Assembly (NCBI GenBank): GCA_964016885.1
Contig: OZ024743.1
Coordinates: 264,430,001-264,494,000 of the forward strand
Source of the DNA: Eledone cirrhosa
Lineage: Eukaryota
Length of the DNA: 64,000 bases
Direction of reading: 5' to 3'
Position numbers and translations under genes: made by a program. Positions 4,712-60,770 of the stretch are shown here, piece by piece. Positions within the stretch are counted from its first letter, which is position 1; each line of letters starts with the position of its first letter. Under the pieces are notes generated by a model. The model saw nothing but the letters and a program-made list of their open reading frames with translations. It made no database searches and was not told the DNA's origin.

Positions 4712-5927
4712 ATAAATGGAATAGAATGAAACGAAATTTCATTTCTCCCTCTTAGTACGGCGCTTACTTAAATGTAAGTATGTATGCATGTATACGTACA
4801 TACATATATGTATATATATATATATATGTAAATAAACAACCACCCCGAATTACGCCGTACAGTGTTTAGGCAACCATCGTCACCTTTTTGTTCAACACTG
4901 ACACAGGAATGATGTACTAGTTTCTAGCTTATTAGCTATCGCCAGCATCGTATACCTTCCTGCCAGATGGTTGAACGTCTGAAAGTATATACTTTCCTTA
5001 TGCATATTAACGGCTGAGCAGCCTAATTTGCATATCGAGTGAGTTCTGCCGGCCACACCGAAAACGATAAATGGAATAGAATAAAACGAAATTTCATTTC
5101 TCAATCTTAGTCTGGCACTTACTTAAACGTAAATATGTATGCATGTATACGTACATACATATATGTATACAGACCTATAGTAGTATGTATATATATATAT
5201 ACATACATGCACACATATATATATGCACGTATCGGTTTACCGAACATTTATTATAATGCTCGGTTTGTTTGTTTGTAAACAAAAAAACAGACCTAATTAC
5301 GCCGTACAGTGTTTAGGCAACCACGTCACCTTTTCGTTCAACACTGACACAGGAACGATGTACTAGTTTCAAGCTTGTTAGCTATCGTCATCATCGTATA
5401 CCTTCCTGCCAGATGGTTGAACGTCTGAAAGTATATCATTTCCTCATGCATATTAACGGCTGAGGAGCCTAATTTGCATATCCAGTGATTTCAGTCGGCC
5501 GGGCACACCGAAAACGACAAATGGAATAGAATGAAACGAAATTTCGGTGTGCCTGGCCGACTGAACTCACTCGATATGCAAATTAGGCTGCTCAGCCGTT
5601 AATATGCATAAGGAAAGTATATACTTTCAGACGTTCAACCATCTTGCAGGAAGGTATACGATGCTGACGATAGCTAATAAGCTTGAAACTAGTACATCGT
5701 TCCTGTGTCAGTGTTGAACAAAAAGGTGACGATGGTTGCCTAAATACTGTATGACGTAATTCGGGCTGTTTGTTTGTTTACAACGAAACAAACCGAGCAT
5801 TATAATAAATGTTCGGTAAACTGATACGTGCATATATATATGTGTGCATGTATGTATATATATACATACTACTGTATGTCTGTATACATATATGTATGTA
5901 CGTATACATGCATACATACTTACATTT
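4712..5927. mobile_element. HHR-bearing non-coding tandem/foldback element (retrozyme-like family A, ~445-bp unit), locus 1
   Basis: Two minus-sense units (HHRs at 4911-4949 and 5355-5397, 446 bp apart), inversion at about 5543, then a plus-sense unit ending in (TA)n; no ORF. Confidence 0.85.
5658..5700 (+). ncRNA. Intact-core type I hammerhead ribozyme (family A)
   Basis: acgatg-CTGACGA-t agct aata agct t-GAAA-ctag-TA^catcgt; predicted cleavage after 5694. Confidence 0.85.

Positions 5928-23479: not shown

Positions 23480-23482
<3 letters not shown>
22464..23482. mobile_element. Foldback pLTR-like element with decayed HHRs
   Basis: Inverted arms 22464-22835 and 23000-23372; HHR remnant tgcc-TTGAACA-atcc..ggac-GAAA-cggctg-TC-ggca at 23280-23326 with a mirror copy near 22510-22556; (TA)n on both sides. 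Confidence 0.8.
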
Positions 23483-23522
<40 letters not shown>

Positions 23523-23529
<7 letters not shown>

Positions 23530-23919
23530 GATAAGCAGAACAAGTAAAATTCAATCAATTTTTCAAAATACATTAAAAAATATAATATAAATATTTACCT
23601 CTTCTAGTGGCCCTTACTGATCAGTTTCGCTTTGTAAAACCTCATAAATCCGATGGATTTATGATGGAAAACCAAAGCTCATCAGAGAAGCATTTTCCCT
23701 TCCTAGGGCTAAACGTCCCAGGAACGACAAAATATACAACCTCCTGCCAGCTAATAAAGGTCTGAAAGGTCGTAAAAGTGACCCGTATGTAAACTGGACC
23801 GAAGTAAAAGCGGGAAAATCAAAGACTTGCTGTCTACAATTACTACTAAAAAAATAGCAGCCAAGTAAAGCAACAGATTTGTTCTCAACGGACGGAGAAA
23901 AAGGTAGAAGTTAATATGT
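23523..23919 (-). repeat. Inverted partial copy of the 485-bp unit, with HHR at 23610-23691
   Basis: Reverse complement of about 23948-24344; abuts (TA)n on the left. Confidence 0.95.
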
Positions 23920-26145
23920 ATTTCTAGGGGTACCTAGTATCCCTGGACATATTAACTTCTACCTTTTTCTCCGTCCGTTGAGAACAAATCTGTTGCTTTA
24001 CTTGGCTGCTATTTTTTTAGTAGTAATTGTAGACAGCAAGTCTTTGATTTTCCCGCTTTTACTTCGGTCCAGTTTACATACGGGTCACTTTTACGACCTT
24101 TCAGACCTTTATTAGCTGGCAGGAGGTTGTATATTTTGTCGTTCCTGGGACGTTTAGCCCTAGGAAGGGAAAATGCTTCTCTGATGAGCTTTGGTTTTCC
24201 ATCATAAATCCATCGGATTTATGAGGTTTTACAAAGCGAAACTGATCAGTAAGGGCCACTAGAAGAGGTAAATATTTATATTATATTTTTTAATGTATTT
24301 TGAAAAATTGATTGAATTTTACTTGTTCTGCTTATCTTAATATTAAAGTTCTGGTGTATCATATTAACACCATTGAACAACCTTGAATCATAGACAACCT
24401 ATGTATTTCTAGGGGTACCTAGTATCCCTGGACATATTAACTTCTACCTTTTTCTCCGTCCGTTGAGAACAAATCTGTTGCTTTACTTGGCTGCTATTTT
24501 TTTAGTAGTAATTGTAGACAGCAAGTCTTTGATTTTCCCGCTTTTACTTCGGTCCAGTTTACATACGGGTCACTTTTACGACCTTTCAGACCTTTATTAG
24601 CTGGCAGGAGGTTGTATATTTTGTCGTTCCTGGGACGTTTAGCCCTAGGAAGGGAAAATGCTTCTCTGATGAGCTTTGGTTTTCCATCATAAATCCATCG
24701 GATTTATGAGGTTTTACAAAGCGAAACTGATCAGTAAGTGCCACTAGAAGAGGTAAATATTTATATTATATTTTTTAATGTATTTTGAAAAATTGATTGA
24801 ATTTTACTTGTTCTGCTTATCTTAATATTAAAGTTCTGGTGTATCATATTAACACCATTGAACAACCTTGAATCATAGACAACCTATGTATTTCTAGGGG
24901 TACCTAGTATCCCTGGACATATTAACTTCTACCTTTTTCTCCGTCCGTTGAGAACAAATCTGTTGCTTTACTTGGCTGCTATTTTTTTAGTAGTAATTGT
25001 AGACAGCAAGTCTTTGATTTTCCCGCTTTTACTTCGGTCCAGTTTACATACGGGTCACTTTTACGACCTTTCAGACCTTTATTAGCTGGCAGGAGGTTGT
25101 ATATTTTGTCGTTCCTGGGACGTTTAGCCCTAGGAAGGGAAAATGCTTCTCTGATGAGCTTTGGTTTTCCATCATAAATCCATCGGATTTATGATGTTTT
25201 ACAAAGCGAAACTGATCAGTAAGGGCCACTAGAAGAGGTAAATATTTATATTATATTTTTTAATGTATTTTGAAAAATTGATTGAATTTTACTTGTTCTG
25301 CTTATCTTAATATTAAAGTTCTGGTGTATCATATTAACACCATTGAACAACCTTGAATCATAGACAACCTTTGTATTTCTAGGGGTACCTAGTATCCCTG
25401 GACATATTAACTTCTACCTTTTTCTCCGTCCGTTGAGAACAAATCTGTTGCTTTACTTGGCTGCTATTTTTTTAGTAGTAATTGTAGACAGCAAGTCTTT
25501 GATTTTCCCGCTTTTACTTCGGTCCAGTTTACATACGGGTCACTTTTACGACCTTTCAGACCTTTATTAGCTGGCAGGAGGTTGTATATTTTGTCGTTCC
25601 TGGGACGTTTAGCCCTAGGAAGGGAAAATGCTTCTCTGATGAGCTTTGGTTTTCCATCATAAATCCATCGGATTTATGAGGTTTTACAAAGCGAAACTGA
25701 TCAGTAAGGGCCACTAGAAGAGGTAAATATTTATATTATATTTTTTAATGTATTTTGAAAAATTGATTGAATTTTACTTGTTCTGCTTATCTTAATATTA
25801 AAGTTCTGGTGTATCATATTAACACCATTGAACAACCTTGAATCATAGACAACCTATGTATTTCTAGGGGTACCTAGTATCCCTGGACATATTAACTTCT
25901 ACCTTTTTCTCCGTCCGTTGAGAACAAATCTGTTGCTTTACTTGGCTGCTATTTTTTTAGTAGTAATTGTAGACAGCAAGTCTTTGATTTTCCCGCTTTT
26001 ACTTCGGTCCAGTTTACATACGGGTCACTTTTACGACCTTTCAGACCTTTATTAGCTGGCAGGAGGTTGTATATTTTGTCGTTCCTGGGACGTTTAGCCC
26101 TAGGAAGGGAAAATGCTTCTCTGATGAGCTTTGGCTTTCCATCAT
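23915..26145 (+). mobile_element. 485-bp tandem array, one HHR per unit (retrozyme-like family B, 4.6 units)
   Basis: Unit starts at 23915, 24400, 24885, 25370 and 25855; CTGATGA at 24181, 24666, 25151, 25636 and 26121 (last truncated); only isolated substitutions between units; no ORF. Confidence 0.93.
24175..24256 (+). ncRNA. Type I hammerhead ribozyme (family B, first direct unit)
   Basis: gcttct-CTGATGA-gctttg..tcataaatcc atc ggatttatga..caaagc-GAAA-ctgatcag-TA^agggc; predicted cleavage after 24251. Confidence 0.85.
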
Positions 26146-26377
26146 GACGTGGCAGCGGTCAAGTTAGAAAGGTTGTGATTAGTTTCTTACGGCTGGTAGG
26201 CTTTTTGCTAGAAAGCGCAGCCCAATACAGCCAAAATTGTATCTCAACCTAACGGGAGATTACTACATATAAAGGTTTACATATATATCTATATATAAAG
26301 TCATAAATATATATGTGTTTTGCAACGGGTCACTTTTGTCACTCAATGAAAAATTAATAAATTAAATAATCAGAGCT

Positions 26378-27109
<732 letters not shown>

Positions 27110-32384: not shown

Positions 32385-33792
32385 ATTATAAATGGTATGA
32401 CCAGTTCTTGGATTCTTCTTCCTTGGGTTGTCCTAAGTTGTTATATAAGTATTTTTATAGCTCGCTGTATGCCATTTTTTTATAAGTAGAGATGGGTATT
32501 TTTGTTTGAGCAAACAGAACTGAGAGAATTTTGGCTCAAACAAAAATACCCATCTCTACTTATAGAAAATTGCATACAGCGGGCTTTAAAAAATACCTAT
32601 ACAACAACTTAGGACAACCCAAGGAAGAAGAATCCTAGAACTGGTCATACCATTTATAATGACACACAACCCATGTCACCAGAATATCTTCAACACTGAC
32701 AAAGCAAACCTACCGACCATTGCTCAAAGTAATGAATTAAAAGGTTTAATCACAGACCGAGCTTTGATTCTTAGTAAAAGACAGCCGAAAAATGTGAAGC
32801 AATTACTAACAAAGGCAAAGTTTGACATTAACAAAAAAGACCAATCATTCACTATATCTAAATGCAATGATAGTCGATGTGGCACATGTCAGTTCATAGA
32901 TACTGGTCAATATATGAACACAAACACTGGAAAGATATTCCCAAATGCAAATATGAACTGCAAAAACAAAAATCTAGTTTGCTGCATTAAATGCCCGAAT
33001 TGTGAAGAACTATATGTCGGTCAAACTTGAAATGCACTATCGGAACGTGCACGGGTGCACCGACAGCAAATCAGAGACCCAAATGTCCGGCAGATACCCC
33101 TGAGTAACCATCTAGCAGCATGTGGTCAGAAAATATTTTTAATATTTCCATTCTACAAACTACACAGCCCAAGTGAAATCAAGAGAAAAATTAAAGAAAA
33201 TAATTTATTGATAAATTCCAACCCAAGCTAAATGAACAATAATAATGCTTAGGGGTATTACTTCTACTATGACTATGCCTACGACCATGTTGGATCCCAC
33301 CACTAGCAACAACAACCATGACAATAATAAAAGTGATGTTGATGTTGATGATTACTGAAGATTTTTTATAAAACCCTAGAAAATGCTATTTTCATCATTT
33401 CTAAAAATAGCAAAACAATTGATGCTTTGGATAGGGTTAAATAGAAGTCGTTAGACATGCTCAACCAACAGTGATGCCTAAACCTATCAGCTTTAGTAAT
33501 CTAGTGAAACCACACACCGATTGGTCGAAATACAATTTGCAAAACTTAGCATTCTGTAGCACCTTTTTACTGTATATAAGGCACAGTTTTTAGCCATCTC
33601 ATTACAGTTGAAAATTGCCAACTTGACTGAAACCACTGAATATAAACCTGAAGATTGCGAAAGCATGAAAGTACTTGTTCAATTAACATTTAACATTTAA
33701 TATTCAACCATACTATTTCATTATAATGTCATTATAATTTTAAATGATTGTAAATAAAACTAGTAAATCAAACAAAGTTGGAATTCCTTTTA

Positions 33793-33797
<5 letters not shown>
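32385..33797 (+). mobile_element. 5'-truncated PLE (Neptune-like C-terminus and GIY-YIG) with 5' foldback
   Basis: SKRQPKNVKQLL..CNDSRCGTC..IKCPNCEELYVGQT; 32385-32514 is the reverse complement of 32532-32660; HHR CTGAAGA-ttgc gaaa gcat-GAAA-gtac-TT at about 33644-33680. Confidence 0.88.
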
Positions 33798-36889: not shown

Positions 36890-38302
36890 AAACTCTTAGT
36901 ACGGCTGTTACTTAAATATAAGTATGTATACGTACATACATATATGTATACAGACGTACAGTAGTATGTATATACATACATGCACATATATATATATATA
37001 TATGTACGTATGGATTTACCGAACATTTATTATAATGCTCGGTGTTTTTCTAAACAAACATCCCAAATTAAGCCGTACAGTGTTTAGCAACCATAGTTGC
37101 CCTTTTGTTCAACACTGACACAGGAACGATGTACTAGTTTCAAGCTTATTAGCTATCGTCAGCACTGTTTACTTTCCTGTCAGATCGTTGAACGTCTGAA
37201 AGTATATACTTTCCTTATGTATATTAACAGCTGAACAGACTAATTTGCATATCGAGTGAGTTAATCGGCCGGGCGCACCGAAAACGATAAACGGAAAAAA
37301 TGAAACGAAATTTCATTTCTCACTCTTAGTACGGCTGTTACTTAAATATAAGTATGTATAGGTACACATATATATGTATACAGACGTACAGTAGTATGTA
37401 TATATGTACATACATACACACATACATATATATATGTATGTATGGATTTACCGAACATTTATTATAATGCTCGGTGTGATTGTAAACAAACATCCGGAAT
37501 TAAGCCGTACAGTGTTTAGCAACCATCGTTGCCCTTTTGTTTAACACTGACACAGGAACGATGTACTAGTTTCAAGCTTATTAGCTATCGTCAGCACCGT
37601 ATAACTTCCTGCCAGATGGTTGAACGTCTGAAAGTATATACTTTCCTTATGCTTATTAACGGCTGAGCAGCCTAATTTGCATATCGAGTGAGTTAATCGG
37701 CCGAGGGCACCGAAAATGATCTGGCAGGAACGTATACGGTGGTGACGATAACTAATAAGCTTGAAACTAGTACATCGAAACTAGTACATCGAAACTAGTA
37801 CATCGTTCCTTTGTCAGTGTTGAACATACTGCTGTACGTGTGTATACATATATGTATATACGTATACATACTTATATTTAAGTAACAGCTGTACTAAGAG
37901 TGAGAAATGAAATTTCGTATTATTTTTTCCGTTTATCGTTTTCGGTGCGCCCGGCCGATTAGCTCACTCGATATGCAAATTAGGCTGCTCAGCCGTTAAT
38001 ATGCATAAGGAAAGTATATAATTTAAGACGTTCAAACATCTGGCAGGAAGGAATAGGGTGCTGACGATAGCTAATAAGCTTGAAACTAGTACATCGTTCC
38101 TTTGTCAGTGTTGAACAAAAGGGCAACAATGGTTGCTAAACACTGTACGGCTTAATCCGGGATGTTTGTTTACAAACACACCAAGTATTATAATAAATGT
38201 TCGGTAAATCCATACGTACATATATATATGTGTGCATGTATGTATATATATACATACTTCTGTACGTCTGTATACATATATGTATGTACGTATACATACT
38301 TA

Positions 38303-56242: not shown

Positions 56243-56312
56243 TTATGTATTATGTATATATATATACATAAATAAATATACACGGGTGTGTAAGATTGTG
56301 CTTAGAAGATTA

Positions 56313-58521
56313 TATTAATAAAAGGAATTCCAACTCTGTCTGATTTACTCGTTTTATTTACAACCAGTTTTGTTTAATGGAGTGATGGGTGTAGGTTATT
56401 CAGGAGGATATTGAACTCATCCAGAGTATCTAGAGATTCTGTCCAGATGATGAAACTGTCGTCAAGCTATATTTTCCAAGACTTTTCAATGTACTTTCTA
56501 AATTCAATGCTATATACTTCCTCTATTTCTTGGTAGAATTGTTGTTCTAATTATCCCATTACAGAGCTCGACTAAACGGGAGCGAACTTCGTTCCCATCT
56601 CTGTGCCTCTAATTTGGATGTAATTCTTTCCATTGAAGAAGAATGTTAGACTGCGTCTAATATAAATGGCACTGTGAATCTGGTGGGAATCACTTCTCTA
56701 TGTTTTTCCACCCAGTATTTAACCACCTTTATTCCTAAATCCTGTGTAATTTTGGTGTAAAGGCTTACCACATCAAAACTAAGTAGAAGTGAATTCGTTT
56801 CCGTGGTTTTGGGAAGATGGGACAGGAAGTCGATATCATCCCGGATGAAACTGGGATGTGAATACATAGTGGTTTCTTAGACGGTGGGTATGGCATGTTA
56901 GACCAGCTATAATATGTCTATTTTTTAAGTCATTTTGGGTGTACTAATTTAATGTACTCCTGAATAACCTACACCCATCTCTCGATTATACAAAACAGGT
57001 TGTAAATAAAACGAGTAAATCAAACAAAGTTGGAATTCCTTTTATTAATATACACCCATCTCTCCATTTTACAAAAGAGATGAGAAGTATCAAATTACCA
57101 GTCCTAGATATAATGGCAATCAAAAACGAAACTACCATTACCATGGACATATACTATAAACACACAGACACCCATAGATATCTGAATTTTATGTCGTGCC
57201 ATCCACCTCATACAAAACGCAGAATCCAATACTGCCTAGCCAGAAGAATTTGTACCATTGTAGAAGATACGAATACCAGGAACAAACGCCTAAAAGAACT
57301 GAGAGAATTTTTGCTCAAACAAAAATACCCATCTCTACTTATAGAAAATGGCATACAGCGGGCTATAAACATACATATGCAACAACTTAGGACAACCCAA
57401 GGGAGAAGAAACCAAGAACTTGTCATACCATTTATAATGACACACAACCCATGTCACCAGAATATCTTCAACACTGCCAAAGCAAACCTACCGACCATTG
57501 CTCAAAGTAAGGAGTTAAAAGGTTTAATCACAGACCGAGCTTTGATTCTTAGTAAAAGACAGCCGAAAAATTTGAAGCAATTACTAGCAAAGGTAAAGTT
57601 TGACCTTAACAATCATTCACTGTATCTAAATCCAATGATAGTCGATGTGGCACATGTCAGTTCATAGATACTGGACTGGTCAATACTGCACAAACAGAAA
57701 TCTAATTTGCTGCATTAATTGTGAAGAACTATATGTCGGTCAAACTGGAAATGCACTATCGGAACGTGCACGGGTGCACCGACAGCAAATCAGAGACCAA
57801 ATGTCCGGCAGATGCCCCTGAGTAACCATCTAGCAACATGTGGTCAGAAAATATTTTTAATATTTCCATTCTACAAACTACACAGCCCAAGTGAAATCAA
57901 GAGAAAAATTAAAGAAAATAATTTATTGATAAATTCCAACCCAAGCTAAATGAACAATAATAATGCTTAGGGGTCTTACTTCTACTATGACTATGCCTAC
58001 GACCATGTCGACTACCACCACTAACAACAACACCAACAATAATAATATTAATAATAAAAGTGATGTTGATGTTGATGATTACTGAAGATTTTTTATAAAA
58101 CCCCTAGAAAATGCAATTTTCATCATTTCTAAATATAGCAAAACAATTGATGATTTGGACAGGGCCAAATAGAAGTCGTTAGACATGTTCAACCAACCGT
58201 GACGCCTAAACCAATCAGCTTTAGTAATCTAGTGAAACCACACACCAATTGGTCGAAATACAGTTTGCGAAACTTAGCATTCTGTAGCCCCTTTTTACTG
58301 TATATAAGGCACAGTTTTTAGCCATCTCATTACAGTTGAAAATTGCCAACTTGACTGTCACCACTGAATATGAACCTGAATATTGCGAAAAGCATGAAAG
58401 TACTTGTTCAATTAACAGTTAACATTTAATATTCCACCATAATATTTCATTATAATATCATTATAATGTTAAATGATTGTAAATAAAACTAGTAAATCAG
58501 ACAAAGTTAGAATTCCTTCTA

Positions 58522-58526
<5 letters not shown>
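56313..58526. mobile_element. Neptune-like PLE with inverted RT segment (same family as 32385)
   Basis: Minus-strand RT 56380-56950 (FDVVSLYT, MGTKFAP, LDD-like) continues on the plus strand from about 57051 (VLDI..DIYYKHTD..RRICTIV, LYVGQT); HHR remnant tgaac-CTGAATA..GAAA-gtac-TT-gttca at 58371-58410. Confidence 0.88.
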
Positions 58527-58579
<53 letters not shown>

Positions 58580-58609
58580 ACTATCGCCAGGGATTTTAGC
58601 AGATAATTG

Positions 58610-58686
58610 ACTCCCTGATGAAGAAAGGAATTGTCCATGGTATGAACACTATGTATATCCCCTTTCAGAAACTAATTAGTTGGAGT
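58610..58686 (+). ncRNA. Intact type I HHR (family C, copy 1)
   Basis: actcc-CTGATGA-a gaaagg..cctttc a-GAAA-ctaattag-TT^ggagt. Confidence 0.85.
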
Positions 58687-59129
58687 GAAACTTAAGTAAG
58701 TAAGTTAATTATTATAATTTTCTTATTTTACGTGTTTCATATAATTGTTCTACATTTTTGTATTGAACCACAAAGTTACTAAGACAAAACCTATATCTTG
58801 CTAGCATAAGTATACTTCTGTATAAATATTTTGGTAGATATACTAATTCTTTATAATTATCTCCAACTTATTTGTTGTGCAAAAATGTGCCTGAATACTG
58901 CTATTATTCATAGTAATGTTTTGGCTACTGTCTTTTTCACACCCCACTCCTCACTCATTAATCTCGATATCACGTGATTGATTCTTTTGAATTTGCCATT
59001 GACCGGGAAGGTAGTGAAATTTTCAGTGACTTGAAATTTAGTCCGCGCTTGCTTCTTTTCCATTCACTGAATTATTTTTGTTTGAGATCCCTGTGCCCGC
59101 CTATCGCCAGGGATCTTAGCAGAGATTGG

Positions 59130-59207
59130 ACTCCCTGATGAAGAAAGGAATTATCGATGGTTTTGAACACTATCTATATCCCCTTTCAGAAACTAATTAG
59201 TTGGAGT
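59130..59207 (+). ncRNA. Intact type I HHR (family C, copy 2)
   Basis: Same core and stems as copy 1; differences are confined to the distal part of stem-loop II. Confidence 0.85.
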
Positions 59208-59827
59208 GAAACTTAAGTAAGTTAATTATTATAATTTTCTTATTTTACGTCTTTCATATATATATATATATATATGAAAGACGAATATATATATATATAA
59301 ATCCGAAATCGACAAAGTCCACTTGCAGGGGTCTGCAAGTTAAAGGGTTTTGGAAGTTAGAACAAGGGTTAAAGGGTTTTGGAAGTTAGAACAAGGAATT
59401 TACTTCGTCAACAAGTTTTTCGTTCTTATCCGCCCGGGTGTGAAAGCTAGCAGTAAGCACTGTCAGAAGGCACATGGTTTTCCTGAAGGGAGGTAACCCC
59501 CGGTTTTGGCGGTCAATCAAATTTGGAACAAAGGAATAAAATTCCTTTACACAAACCGAATTAAGCACACAACTAGAAGTTATCAAACAAACGTAAACAG
59601 TTAATCAATCAATAGAATTATCAAATTAAATTAATCAATTAATCGTTAATTCTAGGAGATAATAATACAAAACTTAGTACAGCATCAACGAAGCTTTGGT
59701 TGCAGCCAAGCTAACGAATGCAATCTCGGTGTGAAGCTAAGAACGCAATAGGGTATATTACCCTAGAGTTATAACATTACGTTTAGACAGCTTTGCAAAT
59801 TGAAAACAGCGACCGATAGACGGGCCG

Positions 59828-60166
59828 CAGTGACCATAGCGACGAAAAAAACTGAACTCAGGATAACATTTTTGACTAACCTGGACCATCGCGTTGACAT
59901 CATACACAACACATGATATATACCATGTAATATACATCACCTATAATATATGTATGTATATATATATGTGTGTATGCATATATATATATACGTATATATA
60001 TGTATATATTATATATACATATATATACGTATATATATACATACATATATTATAGGTGATGTATATTACATGGTATATATCATGTGTTGTGTATGATGTC
60101 AGCGCGATGGTCCAGGTTAGTCAAAAATGTTATCCTGAGTTCAGTTTTTTTCGTCGCTATGGTCAC
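59828..60166. repeat. ~120-bp inverted repeat around a TA-rich spacer
   Basis: 59828-59948 versus 60048-60166. Confidence 0.85.
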
Positions 60167-60169
60167 TTT

Positions 60170-60768
60170 TGCCCGATCCCACCTTGAATACTGTTGTCCA
60201 CTGTGGTCACCCCACAAAATATCATGAAAGTTGAAGCACCCCAAATGTCAATTACAAAAAAGATATATGGCATGACAGGCCTTGATTATTCCAGTCGATT
60301 AGAAAAGCTCAAACTTTATTCTCTCCAACGTCGCCGTGAGCGCTACAATATCTGTATGATGTGGAAAATATTCCATCAGCTTTGCGCGAATGATGTTGGC
60401 ATCGCCTTTAGTGTACACCCAAGGATTGGGCCCCGTGCTCTCCGCCCACGACAAAAATCTCGCTCGCATCACATAACAACAATACGGCACAATTATTTCA
60501 CCTCAATTGACCCTGCACTCTTTAATATTACACCAAAACACATCAAAGCAGAGACAGACCCCATCAAGTTCAAGAAATGTTTGGATAAATTCCTTCAAGA
60601 TATCCCGGATATGCCTCCTACACCCGGATATGCCTCCGTAAACAATTATTCTCTGCTCGAGTAGGCCATGGTGCCCAAACACTGATTTTTAAGACTTCGC
60701 GAGGTGGTGCTATTAAGTTAGACATGACCTGGGCCAATACTGGACGAAACCTATCAAAGCTATCAAAG

Positions 60769-60770
<2 letters not shown>
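60170..60770 (+). pseudogene. CR1-like LINE 3' end (ORF2 C-terminus and 3' UTR)
   Basis: [40 protein letters not shown]. Confidence 0.8.

Follow-up and report, generated by a model that had tools for sequence, protein, structure and literature searches.

A probable 1.3-unit hammerhead retrozyme insertion in a TA microsatellite, proposed to be mobilised by a Penelope-like element

Within a 64-kb window (the whole stretch of DNA that was analysed, 64,000 nucleotides), we identified a non-coding putative mobile element of 680 bases, which is inserted in a TA microsatellite and carries two hammerhead motifs 521 nt apart. This cassette is probably a 1.3-unit, partial-tandem insertion of a non-autonomous hammerhead retrozyme of the non-LTR type, mobilised in trans by the RT/GIY-YIG protein of a Penelope-like element (PLE), and it adds one family to the known class of animal retrozymes riding on PLEs. 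Such an origin is suggested by the ribozyme anatomy together with a chance test, the pattern of conservation between the repeats, folding, a family of related contigs, the layout of two other hammerhead families in the window (families B and D) and the literature. It should be noted on the other side that an autonomous partner with a matching pLTR was not found in a comparison comprising the two copies of one PLE in the window.

The features of the cassette and its surroundings are listed in Table 1. A descriptor scan of the window revealed two type I hammerhead motifs, with predicted cuts at GUU triplets exactly where the initial annotation had placed them (after 58681 and 59202, about 520 apart); the spacing of the cuts is 521 nt and the repeat starts lie 520 apart. 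An equally strict descriptor had no match in 20 Mb of Markov sequence with the composition of the element, compared with two in the window, its thresholds having been chosen post hoc with the motif already seen. The direct repeat (58577–58739 and 59097–59256) is identical in 149 of 164 columns and its upstream copy is 5'-truncated, which bears out the proposed retrozyme-type partial tandem (a 1.3-mer). The family unit, about 517–521 bp long, is arranged head-to-tail, is non-coding and structured, and contains a single type I hammerhead. As had been described, the cassette is devoid of coding frames: no stop-to-stop frame of at least 100 aa overlaps it, and the longest ATG frame on the predicted circle has 30 aa on the plus strand and 51 aa on the minus strand. 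The 521-nt monomer has a GC content of 33% and a folding z score of −5.48, and none of 100 shuffles folded as well. Neither a purine run of 10 or more outside the ribozyme nor a poly(A) was present in the cassette. When TRF (2 7 7 80 10 50 1000) was run on the cassette, only the TA tract and a 29-mer were called and no tandem. The cassette, which comprises 1.3 units, is missed by these settings of Li et al. 2026; the criterion of two consecutive full units applied there is a pipeline rule for 'active' copies and not a family trait.

Table 1. Features of the hammerhead cassette and of the adjoining sequence (positions in the window)
Feature	Position	Strand	Basis
Decayed C-terminal-endonuclease PLE with inverted 5' part; neighbour, outside the cassette	56311..58525	+	sequence motifs, homologs
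(TA)25, left part of the microsatellite target; also adjoins the PLE 3' end	58526..58575	.	
Upstream repeat, 5'-truncated, pLTR-like: arm B, hammerhead 1 and 58-nt tail hairpin	58577..58739	+	
Arm B of copy 1, predicted lock on hammerhead 1	58577..58593	+	complementarity, folding
Hammerhead 1, type I, cut after 58681	58610..58686	+	
Predicted ribozyme-to-ribozyme monomer, 521 nt (linear or circular RNA), highly self-paired	58682..59202	+	
Unique internal part of the 517-bp unit	58740..59096	+	
21-bp hairpin: arm A (59074-59093) with arm B (59106-59126); -25.0 kcal/mol	59074..59126	+	
Hammerhead 2, type I, core as in hammerhead 1, cut after 59202	59130..59207	+	
54-nt tail, cleavage site to 3' end; enters (TA)n with ATAT microhomology	59203..59256	+	
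(TA)9 separating two facing 3' ends	59257..59274	.	
Stub of 9 nt that mirrors the 3' end of the element itself, tail to tail	59275..59283	-	
(TA)7 after the mirror stub	59286-59299	.	

All canonical elements (CUGANGA, GAAA, NUH and stems I–III) are present in both motifs; hammerhead 1 is built of a 5-bp stem I, CUGAUGA, a stem II with 6 bp plus a distal part, GAAA, a palindromic stem III and GUU. The two hammerheads had been called intact, which is right for the catalytic letters, all kept in both copies, and too strong for the base of stem II, where the descriptor scan places A opposite A in both, so that a base pair 10.1–11.1 directly between A9 and G12 is absent from both copies. Two readings of the position are possible, either an A.A mismatch at 10.1–11.1 or two additional bases, one after A9 and a second, an A, in front of G12; both cores depart by an extra A from the geometry of G10.1–C11.1 and G12. 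An extra base between A9 and G10.1 is described as usual in PLE hammerheads (PMC4209133), and U.U at the base of stem II is reported from active natural motifs (PMC3088659). The axolotl HHR_Amex2 resembles the cassette in having a mismatch at the stem II base, but with U.U there instead of A.A, and its reported cleavage was 22% as a monomer and better as a dimer (PMC7229834). Our literature search on A.A (A10.1/A11.1) or a G10.1/C11.1 mismatch found nothing relevant, and A.A or GUU variants may already be published. GUU is a weaker triplet than GUC. It is listed among the cleavable triplets (PMC3138052). A58622, A58667 and GUU were unchanged among the 40 of 227 contig variant rows listed, where neighbouring changes are present, which suggests that they represent the family state. 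The 10-nt palindrome of stem III permits a double hammerhead (duplex −9.0 kcal/mol). Rfam gave no match at the gathering score over the whole window, and none of its 36 matches at E≤10 over 58400–59400 was a hammerhead, most of them being to TA tracts. If the A.A/GUU hammerhead cleaves, the known tolerance of the core would be widened, and the failure of Rfam and of strict descriptors on such families would be explained. Family A, with minimal hammerheads at 5658–5700, 37558–37600 and 38057–38095 in tandem and inverted repeats of about 400 bp, has U.U at the stem II base and is a second family in the window with a mismatched 10.1–11.1 position.

The 3' end of the element lies 54 nt past the second cut and runs into (TA)9. 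A clean position between (TA)n tracts, as stated in the initial annotation, holds for the flanking (TA)25 and (TA)9 and breaks down just beyond, where the 9-nt mirror of the 3' end is found, the only mirror with more than two G/C among the 95 TA tracts of the window. This stub may have arisen by two-strand priming or, alternatively, by replication fold-back on the self-complementary TA tract; a target-site duplication is unreadable inside (TA)n. We propose that a multimeric transcript of the family, either linear or a circle produced by ribozyme cleavage and ligation, would be bound by the PLE protein, and that a nick in the (TA)n tract would prime reverse transcription 54 nt downstream of the cleavage site, with ..CAUAU.. 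of the RNA pairing with the target. Synthesis would then cover one full unit plus 163 nt and stop in the hairpin loop, leaving a pLTR-like direct repeat, and the mirror stub would be left by a second priming event, on the other strand, that was aborted. A PLE protein studied in vitro is reported to prefer and nick AT-rich DNA, to extend both strands and to start inside the RNA; insertion took place there without ribozyme cleavage, and the PLE hammerhead cut only in the presence of the protein (PMC11167929). Partial tandems, inverted copies and a (TA)n bias are described as PLE traits, most insertions being 5'-truncated partial tandems (PMC8557442).

Families B and D share the layout of the cassette, each combining tandem units with a 5' copy in inverted orientation and a (TA)n tract at the 3' end. 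Family B (23482–26145) consists of 485-bp units identical at 483–484 of 485 positions, with a canonical G-C at the base of stem II and a GUA triplet; it has an inverted 5' copy and ends on (TA)22. It looks much younger than the family of the cassette (family C) and appears to be the better candidate for an active retrozyme. Family D (26377–27014) lies inside a 640-bp palindrome, its motif (26653–26730) being intact on one arm only, and has its 3' end on (TA)32. Comparison of the cassette with families A, B and D gave no similarity in seven of eight tests; the remaining match, to the minus strand of family A (score 31, shuffle maximum 30), was set aside as noise among 12 tests in all.

The cassette had been placed right after the 3' end of a PLE, and the neighbour is indeed a PLE by seven homologs (47–54% identity) that have RT and/or GIY-YIG Pfam domains. 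RT motifs on the inverted piece, the thumb region, a CxxC linker and GIY-YIG could be distinguished, the Pfam match of the last (E=0.0037) being below the cut-off. The CxxC linker is given as a mark of Neptune and Nematis (PMC8557442), and the neighbour appears to be of the Neptune/Nematis type. Two decayed copies of the same PLE are present (32385–33796 and 56311–58525), about 90% identical; in each of them the 5' part is inverted and the 3' end lies on (TA)n. Since the second copy also ends on (TA)n, adjacency to the cassette is explained by a shared target. The pLTR of this PLE, similar in size to the cassette unit, has only a degenerate hammerhead-like core, near 58082. Local alignment of the cassette with the pLTRs of both PLE copies gave best scores of 22–26, which 37–190 of 200 shuffles reached, in agreement with the earlier view that the two are unrelated. 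Promoter-like motifs of the pLTR face the cassette from 280–370 bp before it (CCAAT at 58211 and 58245, TATA at 58301), and pLTR promoters are reported to drive the downstream copy (PMC6765202). Thus, read-through from the PLE pLTR is a plausible candidate source of transcripts across the cassette.

It is also conceivable that the cassette was never independent and represents the 3' terminus of a longer, autonomous PLE, whose pLTR of about 520 bp was copied twice by a 5'-truncated tandem insertion. PLE insertions are mostly of this kind, the neighbour's pLTR is of similar size, and an extra base between A9 and G10.1 together with a palindromic stem III is typical of PLE-borne hammerheads. However, the tail-to-internal junction recurs within continuous contigs of other copies, which shows the unit itself to be head-to-tail, the unit contains no coding remnant, and the whole of it folds as one structured RNA; we therefore consider this origin unlikely.

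Other copies of the family, which the initial annotation had proposed to survey, were sought in the window and in public sequence data. The descriptor scan detected no second family C copy within the 64-kb window, whereas public contigs of one sample, possibly from a relative, contained a multi-copy family. The three contig runs of this sample (X1–X3, organism A; library type not given; 0.25–0.31 of the words shared) included 1519, 1643 and 1616 contigs matching at 82% likeness, with a range of 82–99% and most of them 90–99% alike. Summed depth peaked at 406,000–509,000 over 58699–58730, compared with 5–48 for the 24 single records listed; summed contig depth is not copy number, and we take it only as pointing to a strongly repeated family, in the source species or a relative. 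Since there is no long identical piece among the matches listed, organism A may be a relative. The junction from tail to internal part is bridged by at least 31 letters on each side in 2 of the 24 records listed, and the head-to-tail order is thus not peculiar to this copy. Strand-changing joints were found at 58699/59059 (X1 and X2) and at 58608/58798 (X2), and such opposite-strand joints appear to resemble the inverted pLTRs of Penelope elements; a further joint, 58728–59213, occurred at a depth of 2–4 with 20 other letters between. At many positions the cassette departs from the majority letter of organism A, and contig depth is low over the 5' half of the ribozyme, which may reflect divergence or truncation.

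A very deep family of this sort might also be a hammerhead satellite or minisatellite, spread by DNA-level recombination or extrachromosomal circles and not by reverse transcription, and an origin of satellites at PLE termini, followed by expansion through unequal crossover, has been proposed (bioRxiv 2026.07.22.740005). We regard this as very improbable, because target-primed insertion accounts better for a single 1.3-mer within a microsatellite, for a 3' end that is defined on (TA)n while the 5' end is ragged, and for the joints between opposite strands seen in other copies. Among other candidates, read-end pile-ups in run X4 were rejected as defined termini and assigned to library cuts, since all six shown lie at AATT, the cut site of a reduced-representation library, and X4 depth was left out of all counts. 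A metagenome scan with the specific two-part pattern and a genome pattern scan each gave 0 matches; one metagenome match to a 20-mer (L001) and one match among viral contigs (L002) share only the searched words and were attributed to chance.

Between the two repeats there are 10 substitutions, four of them in distal stem II, and 2 indels, one of them likewise in distal stem II. None of the 10 substitutions falls within the 45 positions of the core, stem I, proximal stem II and stem III (P=0.03), and the claim that the hammerheads of both copies differ solely in distal stem II proved correct. Within this part, C58636–G58653 of copy 1 is replaced by G59156–C59174 in copy 2, a compensatory swap by which the helix is kept, and a second helix-keeping change sets a G-U pair against A-U. 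The chance of two of ten changes falling on one given pair is about 0.0036, and over all pairs about 0.05 as a rough estimate. Letters unlike the family majority are common to both repeats at 58691 and 58694/59215, which indicates that both come from one lineage; elsewhere the majority letter is that of copy 1 (59126, 59128 and 59156) or of copy 2 (58734). A 1.3-mer copied from a monomer circle should have had identical repeats at birth. At this one locus the repeats differ by 9%, with the core left untouched and a compensatory swap among the changes, and this leans, weakly, towards a template of two already unlike units or towards later conversion.

Copy 1 begins in the loop of the hairpin that is found whole at 59074–59126, and only the 3' arm (arm B) is therefore present there. 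This arm is complementary to the 5' strand of the hammerhead 1 core (58611–58621) and to the cleavage site (58677–58683), whereas the 21-bp hairpin is predicted to keep arm B off hammerhead 2. In short contexts, the active-fold penalty of hammerhead 1 rises from 2.8 to 8.9–10.1 kcal/mol once arm B is included; an equal penalty was reached by 8 of 400 shuffles and 4 of 400 GC-matched windows, a modest and post hoc support. The upstream ribozyme may thus be blocked by a complementary arm left unpaired after 5' truncation. We do not extend the lock to the family, since copy 2 truncated in the same way is unremarkable (66 of 400 shuffles). For a transcript starting at 58330, the penalty of hammerhead 1 is 6.6 kcal/mol, close to the 6.0 kcal/mol of hammerhead 2 within the monomer. 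A penalty of 12.9 kcal/mol was obtained for the double-hammerhead fold, and for the predicted circle the penalties are 6.4 (active fold) and 13.0 kcal/mol (locked fold); all values are from equilibrium folding, which ignores tertiary contacts and proteins.

These values bear on what the inserted copy could do. A transcript across it, perhaps from the promoter of the neighbour's pLTR, might self-cleave at both sites, a step to which we would give at best an even chance; cleavage would more likely be weak or rely on a double hammerhead formed by way of the palindromic stem III, and the resulting 521-nt RNA could be circularised by a host ligase. It is doubtful that this copy releases the 521-nt RNA, the chances being roughly even against it, because hammerhead 1 is predicted to be masked in short contexts, both cores are non-canonical and only one of nine Xenopus dimers cleaved in vitro (bioRxiv 2026.07.22.740005). 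It is about equally plausible that this copy, though of the same origin, is a dead relic, in which arm B, set free by the 5' truncation, masks hammerhead 1, the sequence has moved away from that of the family and the 521-nt RNA is not produced. Such a state is compatible with all insertion steps and competes only with the self-cleavage step. Besides the rise in folding penalty, it would agree with repeats that are 91% identical, compared with 483–484 of 485 positions for family B units, with the many positions off the majority letter in organism A and with the failure of eight of the nine tested Xenopus dimers to cleave (bioRxiv 2026.07.22.740005). On the other hand, hammerhead 1 transcribed from 58330 comes close to hammerhead 2 in penalty, the catalytic letters are all kept in both copies, and equilibrium folding leaves out tertiary contacts and proteins. 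The initial annotation had further presented the 1.3-mer as established to be the smallest transposition-competent form, and this goes beyond the sources: two ribozymes are said to be needed to start the cycle, mobilisation itself is treated there as a hypothesis or model (PMC7229834; bioRxiv 2026.07.22.740005), and a PLE was inserted in vitro without ribozyme cleavage (PMC11167929).

A more far-reaching possibility, which we think rather improbable as a whole, joins two proposals: the family would have a built-in lock and key, in which arm B, antisense to the core strand and the cleavage site, is held off only with arm A, so that full units and circles are free and 5'-truncated or internally started transcripts are off; and the repeats would have diverged under selection, the template being a linear multimer of unlike units. 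If true, 1.3-mer insertions would allow the circular-template model for retrozymes and PLEs to be tested from genome sequence alone. The cassette also offers a small natural construct for two questions raised in the literature, namely whether retrozyme and PLE insertions are copied from a circular RNA and what purpose the hammerhead serves.

Comparison with known systems places the cassette nearest to the non-LTR animal retrozymes (Cervera and de la Peña 2020, PMC7229834; Li, Clavereau and Pollet 2026, bioRxiv 10.64898/2026.07.22.740005), described as having one type I hammerhead per unit in a head-to-tail, non-coding and self-paired arrangement of <50% GC, with PLEs co-occurring. Its 521-nt unit is longer than the 170–400 nt given in 2020 (PMC7229834) and within the 51–972 bp of the 2026 preprint (bioRxiv 2026.07.22.740005), which also relates retrozyme units to pLTRs. 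Unlike these elements, the cassette has a GUU triplet, a long distal stem II and only 1.3 units, and it is known here from sequence alone. With insertions of C-terminal-endonuclease PLEs (Neptune, Nematis and Poseidon), as described in PMC8557442, PMC4209133 and PMC11167929, it shares a 5'-truncated copy before a full unit, inverted copies in relatives, the (TA)n target, a 3' end shortly downstream of the hammerhead, an extra base after A9 and a palindromic stem III; it differs from them by the lack of an ORF, the additional A between C11.1 and G12 and the fact that no matching autonomous element was found. Non-autonomous elements of Chlamys such as MRC1 (PMC8557442) likewise travel with PLEs without coding for protein, have pLTRs and lie as head-to-tail copies within microsatellites, but according to that account their 3' end generally resembles that of the autonomous partner and most lack hammerheads, whereas the cassette has a hammerhead and no similarity to a partner in the window. 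Plant LTR retrozymes and hammerhead viroids (PMC7229834) also use two ribozymes to delimit a circularisable RNA and contain ribozyme-complementary sequence; the plant elements are described with type III hammerheads, LTRs, PBS/PPT and 4-bp duplications, in contrast to the type I cassette, and the plant or viroid ribozyme is blocked in the circle, whereas the locked state of the cassette would be 13 kcal/mol unfavourable in the predicted circle.

No tRNA was found in the window, and Pfam searches of its 15 long frames, including those of 60188–60770, gave no matches. The segment 60188–60770 presumably resembles the 3' end of a CR1/L2-type retrotransposon, and it ends in short tandem repeats before (TA)n. 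Before it lies a tail-to-tail inverted repeat (59821–60175), with 166-nt arms that are 94% complementary and a TA-rich spacer of 23 nt. The right flank of the cassette (59300–59520) is itself a repeat family in organism A, where contigs are 82–90% alike, and contains a perfect 29-bp tandem duplication (59339–59396).
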